Positions 24,412-39,229 of a DNA stretch of 64,000 bases are shown one piece after another. The position numbers and the translations under genes are program-made. Under the pieces are notes generated by a model. It had not been told where the DNA came from, did no database searches, and was given only the letters and a program-made list of their open reading frames with translations. The DNA is taken from contig OZ360223.1 of NCBI GenBank assembly GCA_977017645.1, positions 180,172,001-180,236,000 of the forward strand, written 5' to 3'. This DNA is from Torpedo marmorata (Eukaryota). Every line of letters begins with the position of its first letter. Within the stretch, counting starts at the first letter, position 1.

Positions 24412-25825
24412 AAAAGCTTTGATATTAACGCGTCTGCGTATATTTTTTTTCATTTTGACTGATAGTGGGAAGGAGACATGAATCTATTGCGCATGTGCTT
24501 ATATTATATATCTCTATAGCAAACTTTTTTTTCTCACTTTGGTTAGATTCTTTTATAGAATTTTTTTCTTTGTTTGGGAAAATTTATTAATTATTCTTTT
24601 TTTTTAAATAAGGAGCTATATTAAGATTCTTCAGTAGAAGTGTGTAGGGTTAAAATGTATTTTTTTGAGCTGGTTACTGCTTGGTTTTGCAACCTTCAGA
24701 GCTGGGATGTTTGGGGGGGAGGGTTTTTGTTTGAGATTTTACTGGATTTGCAAGGTTATTTTGTTTTCATGGTTTATACATGCTGTGTTACAGTGTGGAT
24801 TCAAGGTGACGGCTCTTGGAATGGTGACAGACAGAGTTGGATTATTTTCATAATATTAATTAAGACACATGATTAACCCAATCAGACTTATCTCGTGGAA
24901 TGTTAAAGGTATGAACGGTCCAGTTAAACGCCGTAGGGTATTTGCTCATGTCAGACATTTAAAGGTTAATATTGTTTTTCTTCAATAAACCTATATCAGG
25001 AATTGTGATAAGGATAGGCTCATGTCTAAATGGAAAGGACAATGTTTTCATTCTTCTTCTGATGCTAAAGTCAGGAGAGTTTCTGTTTTAATTAACCAGA
25101 ACATTCCTTTTGTACTTCATAACACCTTATCAGACAAACATGGTCGTTATATTATTCTTACAGGTAAATTATATAATAAAATGGTTGTTTTTGCTAATAT
25201 ATACGCCGTAATTTTTTGAAAGATTTTTCTCAGCCCTACCTGACTTAAGTCAATACTCACTGGTATTGGGGGGGGATTTTAATTGTTGGCTAAATACTGT
25301 TTTAGATCGTTCTTCTTCTAAACCTGCTATTCTAAGTAAATCTGCAGCTGTAATTCATTATTTTTTAACAAATTTTGGTATTTCAGATGTTTGCCGTTTT
25401 TTATATCCTAATAGCAGAGAATTTTTTTTTCTAATGTGCATCGTACCTACTCTCGGATTGATTATTTTTTAATAGACAATCAATTGATTTCATTGACCAA
25501 ATCATGTGAATATCAAGAAATAGTGATATCTGATCATGCTCCTGTTATTTTGTCTTTGAATTTTCCTGACATTCCTTTTACAATGAGGCATTGGTGTTTT
25601 AATTCTACCTTACTCTCAGATAATGACTTTTTGAATTTTATGGAAGAGCAAATTCAGTTTTTCTTCATTACAAATTCTTCTCCATCAGTTTCTAACGTGA
25701 TTGCCTGGGATACTATGAAAGCATATTTTTGAGGGCAAATTATTTCTTATACAGCTAATATAAAGCAGAAGACCAACAAGGAAAGATTAGATATAATAAA
25801 TCAGATTAAACAAATTGATTTACAG

Positions 25826-26089
25826 TATAGTGACTTCAATCCAACAAATAGTCACTTGGAGGCTAGGTGAGATACTTGTTCTTGACGCTTTTCAATTAAT
25901 TTACTAACAAGTCCAATAGGTTCAAAACTTTATTTACACACGTTGACTTGTAGCAATCTTACTCCCGCGCATGCGCAGAGTACTAAATAAGCCCAGCACA
26001 TCCTACTAATCTCCGTGTCTCCTCCGAAACCTGCTGAGACCATCGGAACGCCGCGATTTAGGTAAGTAACCAAGCCTACGGCTCTTACA
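25826..26089 (-). repeat. BEL/Pao 3' LTR (264 bp, internally deleted)
   Basis: Matches both ends of 36361-36871 but lacks ~247 bp of its middle. Confidence 0.9.
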
Positions 26090-26977
26090 CCGGCCCCTAA
26101 TTATTATAATTAGACGCAATGTCTAAAATAATAATTACACAATCAATTACAAATAACAATAACCATATAACAGTCAAACAATATACAATTCTTCTTTCTT
26201 CACAAGACCATAGTTTACCATAACTCTGAATCAATAAAAGTCTGTAACCTGTGTAGTATACAACAATAAAATAAAGTCAGTTTGTATTTATCAAAGTTCT
26301 TTTATCTCCAGAATCATTGAGTTAGAATTTCGACCAGTAAACTTCAAGTCTTCCTCAGACAAAATAGATACAGTTTTTCTTTTGAATTTAACACGAGATA
26401 CTTCTTCAGCATGTCGTTCCACTTTATTCCTTTTTCAGCATTCTACTTCTCATGTGAAGAATTTAAACTCTTAGAACTAGAATTTGAATATTTATCTGAT
26501 CCTCTCGATTTTAATAAACGAGTCTCTTTAACCACTCTGGTTTCTATTGCCTTTTCCTGCAATTCCAAATCCAATTTTGCAACTTTCAATTCAGTCTCAG
26601 TTCTTTCCGAGAAATTAATAACTTTTTATTTTTTTATTTTTTTTAAATATTTTATTTTAAGATTTTCAATTTTTCACAATAATACAAAATAATGTAAAAT
26701 ATACATTAAACATCAGTTAAGTTCAATACATAGGAGTTTCGTATTACCATGAATCTAACCCCATCTAAACCCACCCTTACTAAAACAACCCACCCTCCAC
26801 CCTTCCCGTCCCTTACCCCCTCCCCACACTAGAACTAAAAAAGAAAAGAGAAGGGAAAAGCACAATTGAAAATATATCTATACACATCCATGGCTCGATG
26901 TAAGAGATTCAGCAATGTTCATTCTTCAAATTTAAACTTAGGAGAGTCAGCGGGGTCTGGGATGCAGGGCAACATAT

Positions 26978-29900
26978 TTAAATATTCATTCCTGATAATT
27001 GGATAAATGGACGCCAAATTTGTAAAAAGAGTCCATACTTATTCCTCATATTGTATGTTATTTTTTCCAATGGTATGCAACTCTGCATCTCTGAATTCCA
27101 TCTACTCATACTCAGATTTGTGTCCGATTTCCAGGTCACTGCTATACACTTCCTAGCTACTGCTAGTGCAATTTTCACGAATTTTAATTGCCATATGGAT
27201 AATTTCAATTTTGGTCTAGTTCCCTCTATATTCCCCAATAAGAACAAGTCAGGGTTTTGAGGAAATGCAACACCTGTAACTAGTTTCAACCGGTTTCCTA
27301 ACTCTGCCCAAAAATCTTTAACTTTTGAACATGACCACGTTGAGTGTAAGAATGTTCCTTCTTCTTCTCCACATCTAAAACATCTATTTGGTATTGCAGA
27401 GTTCATCTTGTTCAGTTTTTGTGGTGTGAAGTATATTTGGTGTAAGAAGTTATATTGTACAAGTCTGTATCTTACATTAACAGTATTAGTCATACTATCT
27501 AGGCATAGATCTGACCATCTTTTTTCATCAATTATAATATTAAGATCTTGTTCCCATCTTTGTCTGGACTTATGAAGTCCTCGTTTTTGAGCTCCCTTCT
27601 GTAACAAAGAATATACTATGGAAGTAAATTTCTTAATGTTTCCTTTCCTAATAATAGTTTCTACCTCGCTGCATTCTTGTAACAACATGTCTGGACCTAA
27701 TTTTCCTCTTAAGTAAGCTGTTAGTTGTAGATAGCAAAAAAATGTATTTCTAGGTATTCCATATTTATTCTGTAATTGTATGAATGACATCACTTGATTT
27801 CCTTCGTAACAATCTTCTATTTTCTTTATTCCTTTTAATGACCATGTATTTAAAAAAGGGTTATCTTTTGTAAATGGTATCAGATTGTTCTGTATCAGTG
27901 GCATTTTAGGTGATACATTTCCTTTTAATCCTATATCGTCATTAACCTTATTCCAAGCATTAATCAAATGTTTTAATAGCGGTGTTTCTTTAACACCTGT
28001 CAACAGTTTTGAGTTCCATTTATATATAAATTCTTGTGACTTCTTCTCTCCTATTTCTCCAAGCTCTATTCCAACCCACGCAGGTCTTTCTTCAGATTCA
28101 AAAAAAGAAGCAATAAAACGCATCTGTGCCGCTCTATAGTAGTTCTTAAAATTAGGGAGTTGTAAACCTCCCAGCTCATATTTCCATGTTAAACGTTCCA
28201 TCGAAACTCTTGACATTTTTCCTTTCCATAAAAACTTTCGCACCTGTTTATTTAAGTCTTGAAAAAATACCTGTGGTAGTGAAATAGGTATAGTCTGATA
28301 CAAGTACTGTATCCTTGGAAATATATTCATCTTAATACAATTAACTCTTCCTATCAATGTGATTGGCAGATTAATCCATTTCTCTAGATCCTCCTTAATC
28401 TTATTAAGCAATGGTATATAATTCCACTTGTATAAATTCTTTAATTTATTATCTGTCCGGACCCCTAGGTATTTTATTCCATTATGTGGCCATTTAAACT
28501 GGGTACTTCTCTTGCATACAGCGTAATCTCCTTCCGTAAGAGGCATAACTTCACTTTTATCCCAATTTATCTTATATCCAGAAACTTTTCCATATTCCTC
28601 CAACTTAAGATGTAGTTTTTGCAAAGAGGTCTCAGGTTCGGTCAAGTATATTAATACGTCATCCGCGAATAGACTTATTTTATGTCGCTCTTGACCAACT
28701 GTAAATCCTTTGATTTCCACATCACTTCTAATCACTTCTGCCAACGGTTCTATCGCTAGTACAAATAAAGCTGGTGACAATGGGCACCCTTGCCGACTAG
28801 ATCTTGTTAAGTAAAAGGGGGTTGATAATTGTCCATTTGTCACTACTTTGGCTTTTGGGGCATTATATAACGCTTTAATCCAATCTATGTACGTCTTCCC
28901 AAACCCGAATTTTTCCAAAACTTTAAATAAAAAGTCCCACTCTAACCTATCGAAAGCTTTTTCTGCATCCAGTGCCACTGCTACACTTCGTACTTTCCTT
29001 TTTTGAGCTAAATACATGATACTGAGTAGTCTTGCTACGTTATCTGCTGCTTGTCTTTTTTTTATGAAGCCTGTTTGGTCCATATTTACTAACTTTGGCA
29101 GAAAATTTGTTATCCTATTTGCCAGGATCTTTGCTACAATTTTATAATCTGTGTTCAGTAGTGAAATTGGTCTATAGGACGAGGGTTTCAATGGATCTCT
29201 ATCTTTTTTTGGTATTACTGTAATTATTGCAGTTGAGAAGGACTCTGGAAGTGTATGGGTCACTGACGCTTGTTGTAACATATCCATAAAAATGGGAGTC
29301 AATAATTCTTTGAATTCTTTATAAAACTCTGGTGGAAAACCATCTTCTCCCGGTGCTTTGTTACTTTGTAGTGCGCTAATTGCATCCTTTACTTCCCTTT
29401 GTGTAATCTGTGTGCTTAAATCTAGACGCTCTTGTACATTTAATGTTGGCAAGTTTATCTGAGATAAATAATTATCAATTTTTCTATCATCTTGTAATGA
29501 TTCTGATTTGTATAGATCAGAATAGAACTTCCTAAAAGAATCATTTATTGTTTGGGGTTTATAACTAATGACATCGGACTCTGTTTTAATTGCATTGATT
29601 GTTCTAGATGCCTGCTCTGTTTTTAATTGCCATGCTAATACTTTATGTGCACGTTCGCCTAGCTCATAGTATCTTTGTTTAGTTCTTATAATGGTTTTTT
29701 CCGTTCTATAAGTCTGTAACATATTATACTGTAACTTTTTATTAGTTAATTGCCTACTTTTATCTGTAGAACTCCTCTTTTGCAAGTCTTTTTCTAAAAT
29801 CGTTATCTCTTTTTCTAATTTATCTATTTCTTTCATATAGTCTTTTTTAATCTTTGAAGAGTAGCTTATAATTTGACCTCTTAAAAATACTTTTAAAGTT

Positions 29901-30758
29901 TCCCATATTACAAATTTATCAGTCACTGAATTTAGATTTGTTTCACAAAATATCTGAATTTGTCTCTTTATAAAATCACAAAAGTCTGTTCTTTTTAATA
30001 ACATAGGGTTTAGTCTCCATCTATATATCGATTTCTCTTTATCAGGTACCGTCACTGTCATCAGTAAAGGAGAATGATCAGACAGGATTCTAGCCTTATA
30101 ATCTATTTCCAAAATTCTATCTTGTATTTGAGCTGAGGTTAAAAATAAATCGATTCTAGAATAAGTATCATGTCTAGTAGAATAAAATGAGAAATCTTTA
30201 TCTCTCGGGTGGATTCTCCTCCACGCGTCAATCAAATTTAGATCCTTCATTAACACCAACGTGGCTTTTGCTGCTTTAGTTCTCCTTCCTCCTCTTGTAG
30301 ATTTGTCCAGCCCCGGATCTAAACAAAAGTTGAAGTCTCCCCCAATTATGATATTTTCATGCGCTTCCGCTATATTGAGAAAGGTCTCTTGAATAAATTT
30401 ATCATCGTCTATATTAGGAGCATATATATTCAAAAGTGTCCAAAATTCAGAGAATATCTGGCAGTTAATCATTACATATCTTCCTGCGGGGTCCGATACA
30501 ACACTTTGTATCTTAATTGGAAGATTCTTTTTTATTAAAATTGCCACACCCCTTGCCTTGCTGTTAAATGAAGATGCCCTTACATATCCCACCCAGTCTC
30601 TTTTTAATTTCAAATGTTCCTTCTCTGTTAAATGTGTCTCTTGTAAAAAAAGCTACATCCACACCCAGTTTTTTAATATACGCTAGAACTCTTTTCCTTT
30701 TAATTGGTCCATTTATCCCATTAATGTTAAAATTCAGGAATCTCAATATGTTACTCAT
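26978..30758 (-). CDS. L1 ORF2p (APE endonuclease + reverse transcriptase + Cys-rich domain); single +1 frameshift at 30645-30651
   Basis: MSNILRFLNFNINGIN...VAF/LQETHL, GGDFN, SRID, SDHSP, LDAEKAFDR, RQGCPLSP, FADD, CFRC..H..W.C; 1211 aa uninterrupted after the T7 run. Confidence 0.95.
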
Positions 30759-31203
30759 TTTTAATTATGTTTCGTTCCTATTGATGTCACCCCCTTCATC
30801 CCAGACCCCCCTCTCACCCTCCATAATTACTTTCTTCAATCTCCATCGAGCCAACATATAGTCCTTACAGTGATATATGCAGTTACTATAATAAAAATAT
30901 ACAGTTACTAAGTACATTCCCTTCTCCCTGTAAAAAAGAAAACATGCTCTAACTATAACCCCACTAGCGCTGCTAATATATACAGCGCTACCCCCCTCTA
31001 TTTTACGGGCCGCGGCCTTAGCCGCGGAAGTACACATGATTATAGCAGAAGTCAGGAACTCACCCTCCTCTCCCCGACCCCCCTGATATCACACTTTTAA
31101 CATAAACCATTCTTTATCATTAAGATTTCCAAGCTATAGGTTGTAAACTGATGTATTTTTTTTTACCAATATATACTAGAAAAAAGAAAAACACATTCAT
31201 CTT

Positions 31204-32313
31204 TCAACGTTCCTCTCTAATCGGTGGCAGCTCATTGGCAAATTCCTCTGCTAAAACATAGTTTGTAAAGAATTTGTTTTGCTGGTCCGGTATAAAGATC
31301 TTCAAGGTCGCTGGGTGTCGCAGCACAAATTTATACCCCTTCTCCCACAAAGTCTTTTTAGCTGTATTGAATTCTTTCCTCCTTTTCATCAAGTCGGCGC
31401 TTATGTCTGGGTAAAAAAGAACTTTGGCTGCTTTATATATCAAGGGACCTCCTCTCTGTCTTGCTGCCTCCATTGCGGTCTGTAAAATTCGCTCCCTGTC
31501 TTGGTATCTTAAAAACTTGACTAATATAGAACGTGGGTATTGATCTTGTGCTGGCCTTGCTCTTAAAGCCCTGTGGGCTCTTTCGATCTCAATTTCACGC
31601 TCAAACTTATCCGCGCCTAGCACGTCCGGTAGCCAAGTCTTCATGAAAGCGATCATGTCTTGTCCTTCCTCACCTTCTTTAAGACCAACGATCTTTATGT
31701 TATTTCTTCTACTAAAATTTTCCATTATGTCCATTTGCTGTTTGAGTTTTTTATTTTCCATCTCTAAAACAGTGTAATTATTTTCCAATGCCTCCACTCT
31801 TCCTTCAGTATTTTCCACTTCTGTTTTTATTTTCTTAACTTTATATTCAATCTTCTTTACTTTTAACTTCAAGTCTTTCATATCATCAATTACCTTTTTC
31901 ACATAGTTCATATCTTCCTTTAATTCCCTAACTGTTGTTAGTATAGCTGCAGTTGTTGACAGTTCCCCTTTAAATAGTTGCTGTGACGTCTCCGGCGGTT
32001 GTTGTTGTAGCGCTTCGGCCTCCAGCTGATCGTCCTCGTCTTCCGAATCGGAGCCACTCGTGCCTTCCTGGTCTGAGGTCGTTGTTGCCGGCTTTTCGCG
32101 CACGCGCGTAACAGGCCCGATTTCCCTGCCGGCGCCATGTTCTTGGCGTCGGGAGGGATCAATGCCTGTCGCCGTACCCATCAACGGAGCCTCCTCCTGG
32201 GGCTCTGTTCGCACTTCAGCTCCCTGCTGCCGAGGCCTCTTCTCTGTCGAGGTCTTCTCTTTCCGTTGGAGCCCAGGTAAGTCCTTTGTTGTTTTTTCTT
32301 TTTTCGGAGGCAT
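31204..32313 (-). CDS. L1 ORF1p (coiled coil + RRM + CTD), 369 aa, intact
   Basis: ENFSRRNNIKIVGLKEG, IERAHR, PRSILVKF, FYPDIS...RRKEF, PATLKI motifs. Confidence 0.95.
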   Translation of the reverse strand: MPPKKEKTTKDLPGLQRKEKTSTEKRPRQQGAEVRTEPQEEAPLMGTATGIDPSRRQEHGAGREIGPVTRVREKPATTTSDQEGTSGSDSEDEDDQLEAEALQQQPPETSQQLFKGELSTTAAILTTVRELKEDMNYVKKVIDDMKDLKLKVKKIEYKVKKIKTEVENTEGRVEALENNYTVLEMENKKLKQQMDIMENFSRRNNIKIVGLKEGEEGQDMIAFMKTWLPDVLGADKFEREIEIERAHRALRARPAQDQYPRSILVKFLRYQDRERILQTAMEAARQRGGPLIYKAAKVLFYPDISADLMKRRKEFNTAKKTLWEKGYKFVLRHPATLKIFIPDQQNKFFTNYVLAEEFANELPPIREER

Positions 32314-32526
32314 TTTTTTCTTTTCTTTTTAAAAGGTTAAAGCCCTTTTAAAGTGGTTTTTAGCTTACAAAAAGCGTTTTTTTTTTCACTTTTTTTAAAG
32401 TTCTCAGAGAGGTCGGGTTTCCACGACCTGACCCTACTCCATCACGTGACGTCCCCCCGAGAAATTAATAACTTGATCTGAAATGAAAATATCATGTGAT
32501 TCATTGGTACTTCTATTGTCAATCCT

Positions 32527-32835
32527 GCTGTGGTAAACTTGTAATTTTTTAATTTCTTCATCTTGCTTGTTACATTTCTGCAATGCAATATCACTTTATT
32601 TCTGCATTGTTAGTAGCTGAACCTTCAATTTACATTTTTGATTGTTTTCTATAATCAACTGTTTTGTGTTATTAACCAATAACTTGTTCTCTTTCAAAAT
32701 ATTAATCTCTTCCTCCAACCTTTTACATTTTGATAATGCTGAATCTCTTTCCTCAATAACTGTATTTATTTCTTCAGCAGTTATTCTTTTCTTCCGCTTT
32801 CTGACATTGCAAATTTTATTTACAATTAAATCTTT
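32527..32835 (-). pseudogene. MIPOL1: Intron-less MIPOL1-like coiled-coil segment inside the BEL element
   Basis: LIVNKICNVRKRKKRITAEEINTVIEERDSALSKCKRLEEE...ENNQKCKLKVQLLTMQK*SDIALQKCNKQDEEIKKLQVYHS aligns by eye with the recalled vertebrate MIPOL1 sequence. Confidence 0.75.
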
Positions 32836-33196
32836 CTGTTTACTGTTTTCATGATTATCCAATATTTCCAATTCCCCTTTCAACATTTTGTTCTCTGAAT
32901 TCAATTGCATTAAATTATCATTCACATTCTTCTTTATTCCATCAGCACAATTTTTTGTGTTCTCCAGTTTTACATCACATTGCGACATTTCTTCATTGAC
33001 TTTGTCTGCTGCAACCTCTGAACTACAAAATCTTCTTTCAAATTTGTTCTCAGTCACTTGCTTTATTCCTGCCTCTGATTCAATTACACAGGAATAATCA
33101 CTAGTATTATTTGCAACATCTTTTAATACTTCATTTTCATCCATTTCTGATGAAAATAATTCCTTCAATGTTGTTTTAATTACCTTTGATTTATTT

Positions 33197-35714
33197 TCAC
33201 ATTGATCTGTTTTCTTCAAAAGTGACTTTCTTATTCACAAACTTTTGCTCTTCCCTTAACTCATCAACTTTCACAACTGAAATCCTGTTAACATTTATCA
33301 CTAACTCTTCCTGTGCAATATCATTATTTCTTTCCAATGGTCCATTGATTGTCCAACCAAGCTTGGTTCCAACAGCGTAAGGTCCATTCCCTCCACTCCG
33401 TATTACTTCCAGTGGTTCCAAGACCTTTGGCACATCTGAACCAATCAGCATTTCTATCTCAGAGTTAACTTCAGGTAGATAAACTTTCCACAGATAAAGA
33501 CAAATGGTGGAAATCATTTTGATGTGGAATGTTTCCTTCGTGCACCAGCATAGTCTTCTGAGTATATAAACTTGGAAGATCACAAAATTTTTGTCATCCA
33601 ATCCAGCAACCTCTAAGCCTGAAACAATGCTGGTTTCAACGACCTTTTCTTGTCCTATGGTTTTCAACATAATTCTTGACCTTCCTTGAATATTAAGTTT
33701 GTTCATTAGTCCTTCCATGCAAAAAGATGCAGTGCTGCCTGGGTCAAGAAATGCATATGTATGTACTGTTGCATCCCTTTTCTTGGTCTTGACTTGTACA
33801 GGCACTATTGAAAGATTGCAGTTATCCACACTTGCCCCAGTAAGACCATTTGTCTGAACCGAGGTTATAACATTGTTTTCTGTTGTTTCATTTGTTTCTG
33901 TTTGCTCCTTTTCAAATTCCTTCTTTCTTTGATAGATATGCAACATTCTAGGATGGTTCAAATTGCATATGTTACAGTTAATTCGCTTCTCGCAGTTTTT
34001 ACTGATGTGCCCTTTACACAGACAGCTAAAACATACTCCATTTTCCTTTAAGAAAGCGATCTTCTCATTATGTTCCTTCTTTTCCAAATGTAAACACATT
34101 TCCAAAGCATGTCCACCTTTACAGAACAAACAACTCTTCTCATTAGTCAAACTTTCCTTTTCCTTATTTACTTTATCTTTTTCTTTATTTATAACTGACA
34201 CATTAGTAGCAAAAGTACTTCTTTTCAATTTTGGACTAGGCTGTGAGTTAAACCTCCGTACATCTTTGTTCCCCATTGAATTGTCTTTGGTATTTCCATA
34301 TATTGGATCTGTTTCAATGTAGACCTGTTGTTCGACTGTAATTTTCTTGTAAATCACAAGCCAAATTTCTCCATCTATCCCACAACTTGTAAGGTAATTT
34401 TTCTAAGATGATTTGCATATTACCAGGCACTTCAAGCTCACGAATATTATCGATATCTTCCATGGCATTACAACATCCTCTTAAAAATAGAGTATATGCT
34501 TGTAGAGCTTTTACATCATTCTGTTTTATTGATGTCCATTTAAGAGCTTTATCCATGTAAGCTAAAGCAATTCGATGCTTGTTGTAAAAAAGTTGTTCTA
34601 GTAAAGCCTTAGCTCTGTCTAATCCTCTTTCTGAGGACAAATGTTGACAAATCTTTACAAGTTTTCTTGGATGTCCTTTTGTGAACATTTCCTAATAATA
34701 AAGACATTCATCAGGGTCTTGGCATTTATTTTCAATATTGCGTTTGAAAGATCTCATGAACGCTTGGTACTGAAGTGGATCACTATCAAAAGTTTGTATC
34801 TCTTTCTTGGGTAAAGAAGAGAGAGACTGTAACTGAATCAATGATGCAGCAATTTCATTTTGTCTTCCCATGGATGACAATACATTGCTCTGTTCACCAC
34901 CTCTTGTTACAGGTAATGTATCTGGAAACCTCACTTGTGTAGTTTCTCCCATATTTCTGATGCTTGACTCAAATGCCAAGGGAGCTGCATCGTTTGACCG
35001 AACCCAAGCCGCAGCTTTATCTTCAGATGTTACCACTGGTACATGTGACTCGATAACACTATGCTCTTGAAGGATTTGTCCTTGTATTTTCAAGTCTTGT
35101 ACCCTTGGTACTAAAATATCTACCCTTTCGGTTGGTTTCTTTTCCTGTGATTCTTTTTTAAAATATGACTTTTTATCATCGCACACTTTAGATAATTTAA
35201 TCCGAGCACCAGATACCATTGAGCCTTCTAGTACCTCTTTGTTTGCTTCCAGCTCCTGCTGCTCCTTTCTCTGCCTTAGCTGCTCCTTCTCTTGCCTTAG
35301 CTGCTCCTTGTTCTGCCTTAGCTACTGCCTTAGCTGCTCCTTTCGCTGCTCCTCCTTTTGCCTTAGCTGCTCCTCCTGTCATTCTAAAATATGTTTATCC
35401 TTAAGCGTTTTTTGTTGCGCAAGAGTGGCCAAGTCAACTTCAACCTTTGCATGTGACGATGCAGAACTTGAAGTACGAGAAACTCTGAAGCTCGAATCAG
35501 AACTTTGTTTGCTTCTCCTGCTTTCAGCATTTGAGACACTGTCACATGATTGTATTTCATCCTGCAGGTCAGATGTTGTCTTCTTACTTACCTCTTTCTC
35601 CAATCCGAATTGTACATCCTTTGCATCTTCATCCTCTTCGTTTTCTTCATCATTTGGTGACACAATTGCAGCCATTTCCACCCTGCTGTCTTCTTGTTCA
35701 TCAAACGAAGCCAC
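33197..35714 (-). pseudogene. BEL/Pao gag-protease, decayed (several stops and frameshifts)
   Basis: SLPKKEIQTFDSDPLQYQAFMRSF, KLPYKLWDRWR, CLFCKGGHALEMC, CFSCLCKGHISKNC, CNICNLNHPRMLH, LSIVPVQVK..TYAFLDPGSTASF, GPYAVGTKLGWTING. Confidence 0.9.
35250..35378 (-). repeat. ~21-bp coding minisatellite in BEL gag (EQLRQxK heptads)
   Basis: Repeated GAGCAGCTAAGGCA units on the minus strand. Confidence 0.8.
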
Positions 35715-35900
35715 CTCTTCTTCCTTTGCCAGCTTCAGTCTTGCGATGAGAACCTTTTTATTTCAACTTATATCTAGTTTCAGTCGCTTCAATTCTTCTT
35801 TAATATCCACAACCTTCATGTCTTCAATATGTTGGTCCTCAACAGAAACATCAGCGGTTTCTGCGTCAGCTACTGCTGCATCAGCGGGTGCTGCGGCCAT
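35715..35900 (-). pseudogene. SLTM/SAFB-like N-terminal SAP domain fused in frame to BEL gag
   Basis: MAAAPADAAVADAETADVSVEDQHIEDMKVVDIKEELKRLKLDIS*NKKVLIARLKLAKEEE fits the SAP consensus; the stop sits at the conserved Gly. Confidence 0.75.
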
Positions 35901-36360
35901 TTTACTCGTCTTGTTCCACTGTCCTTCGAGAATACACGACATTAGCCAAATCAACAGTCCCCAATGGACGAGCAGCAGCAAATCCAATCTGTGTTCAAAC
36001 TTGCCAAAAATACACAGAAGGAGTCCACAGACTTATGCCTACCACTTCAGATGACTGTAATGTGCTGCTATTCACAATCGAGTTTCCACCACAACATCCG
36101 TCAATAATATCGCTGATTTTCAAGATATGGTTTCTCCAACTTATTTATAGGACACTTTACTATAAGATTTGAAGCTCTAAATCCCTCTCTGGCTGTTATT
36201 CATGGCAGGTAGATGTGGATTACAAACTGCCCCTAACTCGAGGCATCTCCAAGATGGCTGCCATTTTATTTTTAAATATCAGTCCAAAGCACAGAGAGAG
36301 TATTCTATCTTCTTTCCTTCAATTTTCTGTTCCAAACAATAAGCTTTTATTGACTAAACA

Positions 36361-36871
36361 TACAGTGACTTCAATCCAACAAATAGCCACTTGGAGGCTA
36401 GGTGAGATACTTGTTCTTGACGCATTTCAATTAATTTACTAACAAGTCCAATAGGTTCAAAACTTTATTTACACACGATGACTTGTAGCAATCTTCAATG
36501 ACTTAAATATCTTCTTTAACGAAATATAAACAATTCTTGATAACGATGCTTAATAACGATTCTTCAAAACGTCTTTAAACTTCCTTTAAAACGATTCACC
36601 CTCTTCTAAGTCGCCATATTCTTATACTACTTCTTCTCCGATTCGCGCATGCTCCCACGCGCATACTCCACCGCGCCTACTGCACACACTTCCCCACTGC
36701 GCATGATCCAGCCACTTGCCCACTGTGCATGCGCCCGTCGGCACTCCCACGCATGCGCAGAGTACTAAATAGGCCAAGCACGGCCTACTAATCTCCGTGT
36801 CTCCTCCGAAACCCGCTGAGACCATAGGAACGCCGCGATTAAGGTAAGTAACCAAGCCTACACCTCTTACA
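36361..36871 (-). repeat. BEL/Pao 5' LTR (511 bp)
   Basis: Paired with 25826-26089; GC-rich segment with repeated GCGCATGC motifs. Confidence 0.9.
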
Positions 36872-39229
36872 TACAGTATACACAAGTTAAAAACCCTGAT
36901 TTATATAAAAGGAGAGTTGAACTTAAAACTAAATTTGATCTTCTTTCTACTTATCCCATTGTAGAGCAACTTTTGAGGAGCAAGAGTCAGTTCTACATCC
37001 ATAGTGAAAAATCCGGTAAGCTTTTGGCCAGTCAATTGAAAAGTATGGCTGCTAAGAGACAAATTAATAAGATTCGGATGGAAGATGGTACGGATACTAC
37101 TGACCATTCTAAAATAAGTGATACCTTCAGAGAATTTTATTCCAGATTGTGCACTTCTGAATCTAATAATGAAAATACTTCAATGATGGACTTTTTGGAC
37201 CGCCTTAATTTGCCTATGCTTTCTTAGAATAAACGTATGAGTCTGGAGGCTCCTATTTCTCAAGAGGAAATACTTTTTTACAATCTGGTAAATCTCCAGG
37301 ACCTGATGGGTACCCTGTGTAATTTTATAAATCCTTTTCTAAATTGCTTGTGCCCCAATTGAGTTCTGTGCTTAATGACTCATTTAAACAAGGGAATCTT
37401 CCATCATCTTTTAATGAAGCTTGTATTTCTCTTATTCTGAAAAAGGGGATCCATTTGAATGTGCTTCTTATAGGCCTATCTCTTTACTCAATGTAGATAT
37501 GAAGATTTTGTCTAAAATATTGGCCCATAGATTGGAGAATATTTTACCATCAATCATTTCTGAAGATCAAACTGTTTTTATTAAAACTGTTATTCTTATT
37601 TTAATATACACCGTTTATTGAATATTTTATATTTACCTCCCACTCCTGTCCCTGAATGTGTTCTTTCTCTCGATGCAGAGACGGCTTTCGATCGGGTGGA
37701 ATGGGGGTATCTATTTGCGACTTTGGAAAAATGTAATTTTGGACCACGTTTTATTAAATGGATTAAATTATTATATTTATGTCCTACTGCGTCAATTCTT
37801 ACTAATTTACAGCAATCAAAACCTTTTAATCTTCAACAGGGTACTCGTCAAGGCTGTCCTTTAATCCATTACTTTTTGACTTGGTATTAGAACCTCTAGC
37901 AATTGCTCTTCGTGAATGTAGAGATTTTATAGGGATCCATAGGAACAGCATTGAACACAAGGTTTCCTTATATGCAGATGATCTTTTGCTTTTTGTATCT
38001 AATCCAGATGTTTCTTTACAAAGCATATTAGCTTTGCTAACTCATATTAGTCTGTTTCTGGGTATAAGTTGAATCTGCATAAAAGTGAACTTTTACCTTT
38101 AAATGGTTCTATACCAAGATATTCTATTTTTCGTTTTAAGATTGTGAAGGATCAATTTACCTATCTCGGTATTACAATTACTTTTTAAGGAAAGTTTTTC
38201 TAATTTATTTAATCAGGTTAAATTATTGTTATCGAGATGGTCACCTTTATCTATTTCCATGATTGGTCGTATCAATTCTATTAAAATGAACATTTTACCT
38301 AAATTTTTGTATCTTTTCCAATCTATACCAATTTTCATTCCCAAATCTTTTTTTGATTCACTTATTTCGCTTATATCTTCCTACATATGGAAAGGAAAAC
38401 ACCCTCGCTTAAATAAAGCTCATCTTGAAAAAGCTAAAAGGAATGGTGGATTGGCTTTTCCTAATTTTAGATTTTATTATTGGGCGGTCAATATATGTAA
38501 TTTGATTCTTTTGCTATATTTTGATAATCTAGTTGACCGCTCTTCATGGGTAGAAATAGAACTGAATTTTACTAAGAATACTTCCATGTTGGCAATTCTT
38601 GGGTCCTTTTTATCTTCTTCTTTATATAAACTAACTGATAATCTGATAACTAAACATAGTTTGAGAATATGGGCAAAAGTTAGAAGGTTTTTTGGATTTC
38701 AGAGTTTTTCTCTTGCTAGCCCTATTATATCTAATCACCTTTTCCAACCTTCTTTGCAAGATACCGCCTTAAATGTTTCAGACCTTTTTATTCGTATAAT
38801 TTTGCTTCTTTTGAACAATTGGTGGTAAAATTTAACTTACCAAACACTCATTTTTTTAGATATTTACAAGTTAGACATTTTGTTCAATCTCAGATCCCTC
38901 ACTTTCCGCGAATCCCCGAAGCAAACATCCTTGATACACTTTTTGATTTACAACTTTCTCATAAAGGCTTAATATCTCTTATTTATAATAATTTGCTTGA
39001 TTTAAGAATAGCCTCGTTAGTTAAAATCAAGAATGATGAGGTTTGGGACTCCATTTGTAATTTGATTAATACTACCTCCCTTTGTGCATGACACTGTTTG
39101 TTGCAATTTAAAGTGGTCCATAGAGTACATATGTCTAAAGTTAAATTGTCTCGTTTTTATTCAGATATAAATCCTCTATGTGACAAATGTAAAATTGGTG
39201 AGGCTTCTTTGGTTCACATGTTCTGGACT

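Follow-up and report, generated by a model that had tools for sequence, protein, structure and literature searches.

A pol-less BEL/Pao retrotransposon family of Torpedo marmorata carrying sequence from SLTM, BRCA1, MIPOL1 and Elongin A

Introduction

Retrotransposons with long terminal repeats (LTRs) are already known to capture cellular sequence. Among the LTR-mediated retrocopies described by Tan et al. (2016, PMC5131818, in the sections drawn on here) are a chimera of two genes in a BEL/Pao element (BATUMI) and a "Super" retrocopy of four genes from mouse, and mouse circRFWD2 pseudogenes, of which there are 33 high-confidence copies, are likewise LTR-associated (Dong et al. 2016, PMC4897178, in the part used here). 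The subject of this report is an element on the minus strand (36871-25826) of a 64,000-nucleotide stretch of the Torpedo marmorata genome (contig OZ360223.1, positions 180,172,001 to 180,236,000), hereafter the window. It is a BEL/Pao derivative without pol, in which the LTRs, the polypurine tract (PPT) and a 5-bp target site duplication (TSD) are all present. We think it probable that it belongs to a high-copy, pol-less family which joins, in one frame, the SAP domain of SLTM, Gag, protease and spliced BRCA1, MIPOL1 and Elongin A sequence; the host pieces would have been captured by template switching, MIPOL1 likely from a circular RNA (circRNA), and the whole moved by borrowed reverse transcriptase (RT) and integrase. 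Acutely transducing retroviruses, in which Gag is fused to host-derived sequence replacing pol and which are helper-dependent, offer a further parallel.

Compared with the retrocopies (PMC5131818, as far as excerpted), the family is alike in that partial spliced mRNAs of several genes replace the internal open reading frame (ORF) and in its re-transposition as a non-autonomous element; intron-less partial host mRNA in place of the internal ORF, and secondary retroposition with shared switch points, were both found. It differs in that those retrocopies occupy single or few loci, whereas the window family has at least 4,757 copies in several age classes, an in-frame fusion to Gag-protease, a back-spliced piece and helper recombination. 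Maize Bs1 (same source and extent) also has a hybrid ORF from three cellular genes inside an LTR element, with switch points shared across copies, but it exists in only 1-5 copies and has been interpreted as a host gene that neofunctionalised, whereas the window family is selfish and high-copy, and no amino-acid selection is seen in its cargo. With the circRFWD2 pseudogenes (PMC4897178, in part) are shared a non-colinear junction at splice sites, the presence of circle exons only, the absence of poly(A) and the LTR association; the junction of the window family, unlike theirs, lies in frame within a retrotransposon polyprotein between two host genes and is more than 100 times more numerous. 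Autonomous BEL/Pao elements (Belpaoviridae) likewise possess LTRs, a 5-bp TSD, a three-knuckle Gag and a DxGS protease, but the window element is without RT, RNase H and integrase, and the Gag of its lineage, autonomous relatives included, begins with the host SLTM SAP. Unlike acutely transducing retroviruses, the family gives no sign of cargo selection for protein activity, and no env was seen; an analogy to functional oncogene transduction is accordingly not established, the 3′ cargo showing no selection at the amino-acid level.

Capture by LTR elements is thus not new; what we have not found in print are its occurrence at this scale, the fusion in frame and cargo of circRNA type. The sequence-only reading of the window knew of no such family, and the literature searched, which did not extend to subscription journals or Repbase/Dfam, holds no account of the family, of a BEL Gag that bears the SAP of SLTM, or of any retrotransposon ORF containing a back-splice junction.

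Results and Discussion

A non-autonomous element without pol

Feature coordinates are collected in Table 1. The LTRs, PPT and TSD that had been proposed around a nested L1 were confirmed, and the two LTRs are 92-94% alike. LTRs usually begin and end with TG...CA; those of the window element have TG...TA. No TGG-type primer binding site was seen after the 5′ LTR, where a TAGTCAAT-like motif, common to the chimeric copies and the pol-bearing relative L129, is found instead. The frame of the window copy is broken, and its order is SAP, gag DUF1759, three Cys/His knuckles, DPGS protease and coil. Pfam gives the SAP an E value of 0.011 here versus 2e-10 and 5e-8 in relatives, and the gag, which has several breaks, is 83-87% identical in nucleotide sequence to that of the pol-bearing relatives (L127-129).

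A tblastn search of the window with the 1,000-aa pol region of a relative gave no match. Among 39 other copies of the young subfamily, the same query yielded a single match of 29 aa, in the L068 stretch and well away from the cargo. Neither the window nor the cargo region of the copies contains RT, the Peptidase_A17 RNase H or the DUF5641 integrase, all of which are present in L127-129. The proposed frame (SAP, gag, protease, coil, no pol) thus held up in both the domain searches and the pol search, and the window element is a non-autonomous derivative, not an autonomous BEL/Pao member.

The young copies come from a scan of the 6.2-Gb host genome for the protease-coil stretch, which returned 6,659 first-look candidates; the 40 that were scored were 94-100% identical. 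All 39 of the other young copies fetched show the same pol-less join of the coil straight to the 3′ end. Copies were picked by best score, and the resulting bias toward similar and complete ones tells against reading the sample as the whole family. The nested L1, in which both ORFs are open (ORF1, 374 aa; ORF2, 1224 aa), is absent from all 39 and is a later insertion private to the window copy.

Sources of the cargo

On sequence comparison the coil is spliced BRCA1, followed by MIPOL1 in two pieces of permuted order and then Elongin A. Pfam returned no match on the window coil, and its identity came solely from homolog searches: the coil ORF matches Narcine bancroftii BRCA1 (66% over 133 aa, E 8e-40) and MIPOL1 (E 1.5e-22). 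In older copies the cargo pieces are longer, with 90-98% DNA identity to host exons, and Elongin A, BC-box region included, is present as well (PDB 8oev_M, E 7.5e-37; Pfam PF06881 over cut-off). The host exons themselves are about 72-96% identical in protein to N. bancroftii.

Each of the three genes in the coil has a single host locus. BRCA1 lies on C61, and four of its exons are joined without introns in older copies, two in the window copy. MIPOL1, on C40, spans 317 kb. ELOA is on C41, and three located exons are joined in the element; the last ELOA exon was not located in the host. Since introns are present at the host MIPOL1, BRCA1 and ELOA loci and absent from the element, spliced RNAs were captured, in agreement with the proposal of a non-autonomous BEL/Pao element whose pol was replaced by captured spliced mRNA. 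That proposal had named a double host-gene capture and a MIPOL1-like coil. Host capture is real and MIPOL1 is present, but the coil also includes BRCA1 and an Elongin A remnant, one piece is back-spliced, and with SLTM the captured host genes are, we are almost certain, four.

An annotation artefact as the source of the BRCA1 match was ruled out by an independent full-length BRCA1 with an N-terminal RING (P0074) and by the single-copy host exons. Separately, residues 1-185 of an N. bancroftii BRCA1 isoform (P0001) have a repeat-derived, gag-like start instead of the RING and match the flanks of three copies (L036, L037 and L068); this N-terminus is probably a mis-annotation or an exonisation.

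At the BRCA1/MIPOL1 switch point only about 2-5 nt of microsimilarity is visible, and the BEL side is too diverged. Between MIPOL1 exon D and ELOA, copies L116 and L119-L126 have a linker of 17-20 nt that starts like the LTR of the older subfamily (16/17 to the L125 LTR start), which suggests either that template switching took place where PPT and U3 are cleaved apart or that the linker is a scar of auto-integration.

The permuted MIPOL1 piece

In the cargo, MIPOL1 opens with the 3′ part of exon F followed by G and H, after which come exons B and C and the beginning of exon D. Host exons F, G and H are at C40:64492683-513, 64463599-492 and 64385806-712, and each MIPOL1 exon is single in the 317-kb interval. 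In 11 of 11 older copies the end of H, which is the host donor, is joined to the base to the start of B, which is the proximal AG of a tandem acceptor. The MIPOL1 matches in the cargo are limited to residues about 295-385 and 437-553, corresponding to the exons of a 778-nt B-H circle, about 590 nt of which is present; no exon A or I sequence was found in the copies examined, and no poly(A). This exact donor-to-upstream-acceptor join is the signature reported by Dong et al. (PMC4897178), on account of which we consider it very likely that the MIPOL1 piece came from a circular RNA.

Two points count against a circular source: what is seen here is a DNA junction and not the circRNA itself, and a 2-nt AG microhomology would also permit a backward template switch on linear mRNA. 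Such a switch, trans-splicing or a since-lost genomic tandem duplication could also have produced the permuted order. The ends of exons H and A share AG, the element underwent many template switches, and non-colinear junctions may arise by other routes (Dong et al. 2016, PMC4897178, in the part used here). Both sides of the junction nevertheless fall on splice sites to the base, including the proximal AG of the tandem acceptor, whereas the other placeable cargo junctions are mid-exon; moreover, no exon outside B-H occurs in the element, and every exon is single-copy in the host. We therefore regard these linear or genomic routes as unlikely and retain the circular template.

The host MIPOL1 introns (C40:64324001-64641500) contain four chimeric-element copies and pieces of pol-bearing BEL elements, and one copy at C42:9563886-9564965 has tandemly repeated MIPOL1 blocks.

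The SAP domain

The best protein match of the SAP is Callorhinchus SLTM (68% over 50 aa). The host SLTM exon (C68:47494943-47495131) is 74% identical in nucleotide sequence to the window copy and 81-88% identical to the SAP-bearing copies L131-135, and the match includes 37 nt of 5′ untranslated region (UTR) and the ATG. Past the host donor the element reads AIEEE, like the spliced SLTM protein; SLTM exon 2 was not located in the host, and splicing of this piece rests on those five residues, not on an intron. The following roughly 50 residues (window about 35735-35600, minus strand) matched neither SLTM nor a named protein, and could be native BEL or a fifth source.

Because the pol-bearing relatives carry the SAP and three of six older pol-less copies have lost it, the SAP belongs to the BEL lineage and is not specific to the pol-less family. 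The suggested host DNA-binding module on Gag is SLTM exon 1, but it is not peculiar to the pol-less elements. No named SAP-bearing BEL polyprotein occurred among 447 candidates in what was a weak search, and PMC3118150, in the part consulted, makes no mention of extra domains. Per-column counts of the SAP against the host give dN 0.21 and dS 1.03, hence a dN/dS of about 0.2. Against constraint on the SAP stand its loss in those three of the six older pol-less copies with the N-terminus in view, a McDonald-Kreitman-type test that is not significant (p 0.35) and a dS that is likely inflated by GC/CpG loss.

Reading frame and selection

That many copies would have one open frame was also confirmed: among the other copies "open" outnumbers every other class in each of the 18 intervals between the ATG and MIPOL1, and the natural copies L036 and L035 run unbroken from protease through BRCA1 and MIPOL1 to ELOA in host-native frames. 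Constraint on amino acids was found in the chassis, not in the cargo. The gag core and protease show omega values of 0.18 and 0.29 versus L127 (p 1.5e-4 and 0.016), and nonsynonymous to synonymous (N:S) counts in the chassis are 50:36 for variants in at least four copies versus 447:135 for singletons (p 5e-4), replacements being depleted. For the cargo omega is 0.67 versus 0.85 for private decay (p 0.36), with 0.93 for MIPOL1 alone, and the corresponding N:S counts of 48:11 versus 257:70 (p 0.73) show no depletion. The dN/dS check proposed for the captured segments thus divides them, the SAP at about 0.2 and the BRCA1/MIPOL1/ELOA cargo neutral (p 0.36-0.73).

Stops behave otherwise: none was found among 152 shared changes in the cargo versus 29 among 346 private ones (p 3e-5). 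The measured shared deletions (282/285, 24, 87, 81, 111, 291 and 30 nt) are all multiples of three, and two further shared deletions keep the frame by net count. It is our favoured reading, held with some reserve, that the cargo evolves neutrally at the amino-acid level yet stayed open, as an open-frame passenger rather than an adapted protein.

Three observations weigh on the other side. Changes polarised to the young-lineage chassis number only 9 N : 4 S, so that purifying selection on gag-protease while pol-less is not set apart from selection in a helper; one stop variant is common to at least four young copies; and six of the 39 young copies, the window copy among them, have a common frameshift ahead of the cargo. 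The tree did not support a sub-lineage defined by this frameshift, as the six form no clade and require 6 changes, and we read the frameshift as recurrent slippage. The 17 "shift" assignments at the protease/BRCA1 join are mostly an anchor artefact, the alignment showing 32 of 39 copies without an indel there.

A functional 3′ protein freed by the element protease, which might for instance serve as a coiled-coil scaffold or, in the case of older subfamilies, provide an Elongin BC/cullin-recruiting box against host defence, would also account for cargo joins that are all sense and in host-native frame, for the frame-keeping of the shared deletions and for retention of the BC-box in older sub-lineages that deleted the middle of ELOA (L122, L123, L124 and L126). 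It is improbable in view of the missing amino-acid constraint, the stepwise erosion of the cargo and the deletion of the BC-box in the young subfamily, window copy included. Still less credible is a wholly neutral filler, open by historical accident and with a copy number reflecting only helper activity, since the neutral omega and the shared stop variant that agree with it are outweighed by the 0/152 stops among shared changes, by joins that all fuse in frame and by shared deletions that keep the frame.

Pol-bearing relatives and probable helper recombination

The autonomous partner expected to share the LTR ends was found. L127-129 have a full pol and have the LTR ends and SAP in common with the chimeras, and are 83-87% identical to the window copy over gag-protease; L127 encodes SAP, DUF1759, RVT, Peptidase_A17, integrase and DUF5641 in one 2047-aa ORF. 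A tree built on the protease unites the young chimeras with the pol-bearing relatives (100/100) and places the older chimeras elsewhere. Protease distances average 0.11 for young-autonomous, 0.20 for old-autonomous and 0.19 for young-old pairs, and the young-old cargo distance is 0.16-0.20. A young gag-protease close to the later autonomous lineage could not be regained by a pol-less lineage without recombination, and the RNAs were therefore likely co-packaged. These distances make recombination of the pol-less family with helpers likely, and the apparent co-packaging gives indirect support to mobilisation in trans, in which the pol-bearing relatives would likely supply the RT and integrase for movement of the family.

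Copy number and age

An exact 20-mer across the H-B junction occurs 4,757 times genome-wide, its reversed control not at all. As 25 of the 39 young copies and 9 of the 11 older ones contain the 20-mer, 4,757 is a floor, and correction by 25/39 gives a scaled guess of roughly 7,400 copies. An estimate from host-gene introns (four copies in 375 kb, extrapolated to 18,000-170,000) reflects local density only and was not used. The expectation of many copies with distinct TSDs was upheld in the 17 with both ends: 13 have perfect 5-bp TSDs and 2 have one mismatch, all different, while 2 are unmatched. LTR-pair divergence has a median of 5.6% in the young subfamily (n=19) and reaches 8-12% in an older subfamily (n=4), compared with 1-2% for the pol-bearing relatives (n=2).

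Contigs from four sequencing runs with four other organism labels cover 29-30 of 30 bins, and those of X3 and X4 bridge the H-B junction. They indicate presence in other samples, not expression, and the family is probably not confined to this assembly. Near-identical ELOA-containing matches also lie on the small contigs C2005, C1027 and C2476.

Proposed history

The likely route of capture is RT template switching among RNAs co-packaged in a particle. An autonomous ancestor would first have captured SLTM exon 1 onto Gag, where the SAP may have been kept under purifying selection, plausibly as a DNA- or chromatin-binding module. Pol would then have been replaced by BRCA1 mRNA, a MIPOL1 circle and ELOA mRNA, and the product would have spread with helper enzymes while eroding by in-frame deletions. 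In a third step the cargo may have been re-mounted onto a newer helper chassis by recombination and amplified again. Throughout, selection on the cargo would preserve nothing but the open frame, the amino-acid sequence being free to change, possibly because an early stop destabilises the RNA or impairs Gag- or translation-coupled packaging.

A bolder version, which we hold to be doubtful, has the SAP on Gag targeting chromatin or countering SAFB defence. The satellite would then be a long-lived RNA-capture vector with a circRNA frozen in a translated polyprotein, which once carried the Elongin BC-box as a Vif-like ubiquitin-ligase adaptor and was re-mounted per helper lineage. SLTM belongs to the SAFB proteins, suppressors of L1 and LTR elements (PMC10901741, in the part used here).

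Features of the window

Table 1. Positions of the element and its parts in the window
Feature	Position	Strand	Description
TSD, 5′ side	36872-36876		5 bp; 5-mer identical to 25821-25825
5′ LTR	36361-36871	minus	511 bp, termini TG...TA; start motif and terminal TA also in pol-bearing relative L129
SLTM exon 1 capture	35735-35937	minus	5′UTR remnant, ATG at 35900, SAP domain; stop near 35762 (window copy)
BEL gag	33900-35734	minus	Acidic/Ser-rich N-terminal part, EQLRQ repeats, DUF1759 core, three Cys/His knuckles (about 34110-33940)
Aspartic protease and end of BEL sequence	33250-33830	minus	FLDPGS at 33751
BRCA1 mRNA fragment	32828-33249	minus	Two host exons, introns absent; frameshift near 33216 (window copy)
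MIPOL1 exons F (3′ part)-G-H, spliced	32528-32833	minus	Matched to host exons on C40
Back-splice-type junction	32527-32528	minus	Donor of exon H joined to acceptor of the upstream exon B
MIPOL1 exon B remnant	32459-32527	minus	Split by nested L1
Nested full-length L1	26625-32458	minus	16-bp TSD at 26609-26624 and 32459-32474
MIPOL1 exon B/C remnant	26521-26624	minus	70% over 30 aa to P0002 residues 347-376
Elongin A remnant	26313-26533	minus	Two host exons, BC-box region deleted in young subfamily; 82% nt to host ELOA exons on C41
BEL integrase-tail and 3′UTR remnant	26090-26310	minus	PPT at 26090-26105; 82% to L129 and L127
3′ LTR	25826-26089	minus	264 bp; internally deleted
TSD, 3′ side	25821-25825		5 bp

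The BEL element sits within an older, decayed L1 ORF2 (24989-25825 and 36872-38072, plus strand), giving a three-level nest of old L1, BEL chimera and young L1. Over 32475-33240 the GC content of the cargo is down to 29% from 37% in the host exons, with 45% A on the element strand.

Significance

The family would stand as a dated fossil record, in high copy number, of back-spliced RNA being packaged and copied by an LTR retrotransposon, a process whose mechanism was called mysterious by Dong et al. (2016, PMC4897178, in the part used here). It also represents four-gene exon shuffling amplified to thousands of copies, which would amount to roughly 0.5% of the genome if most are near full length. 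Selection on the frame is here separated from selection on the protein, and this makes the cis-requirements of non-autonomous LTR elements testable. In addition, a domain of a transposon-repressor family (SAFB/SLTM; PMC10901741, in part) has been placed on the Gag of pol-bearing elements. For these fish, thousands of BRCA1-, MIPOL1-, ELOA- and SLTM-like copies are confounders for gene annotation, RNA-seq and circRNA calls, and PIWI-interacting RNA directed against the element could target the host genes.

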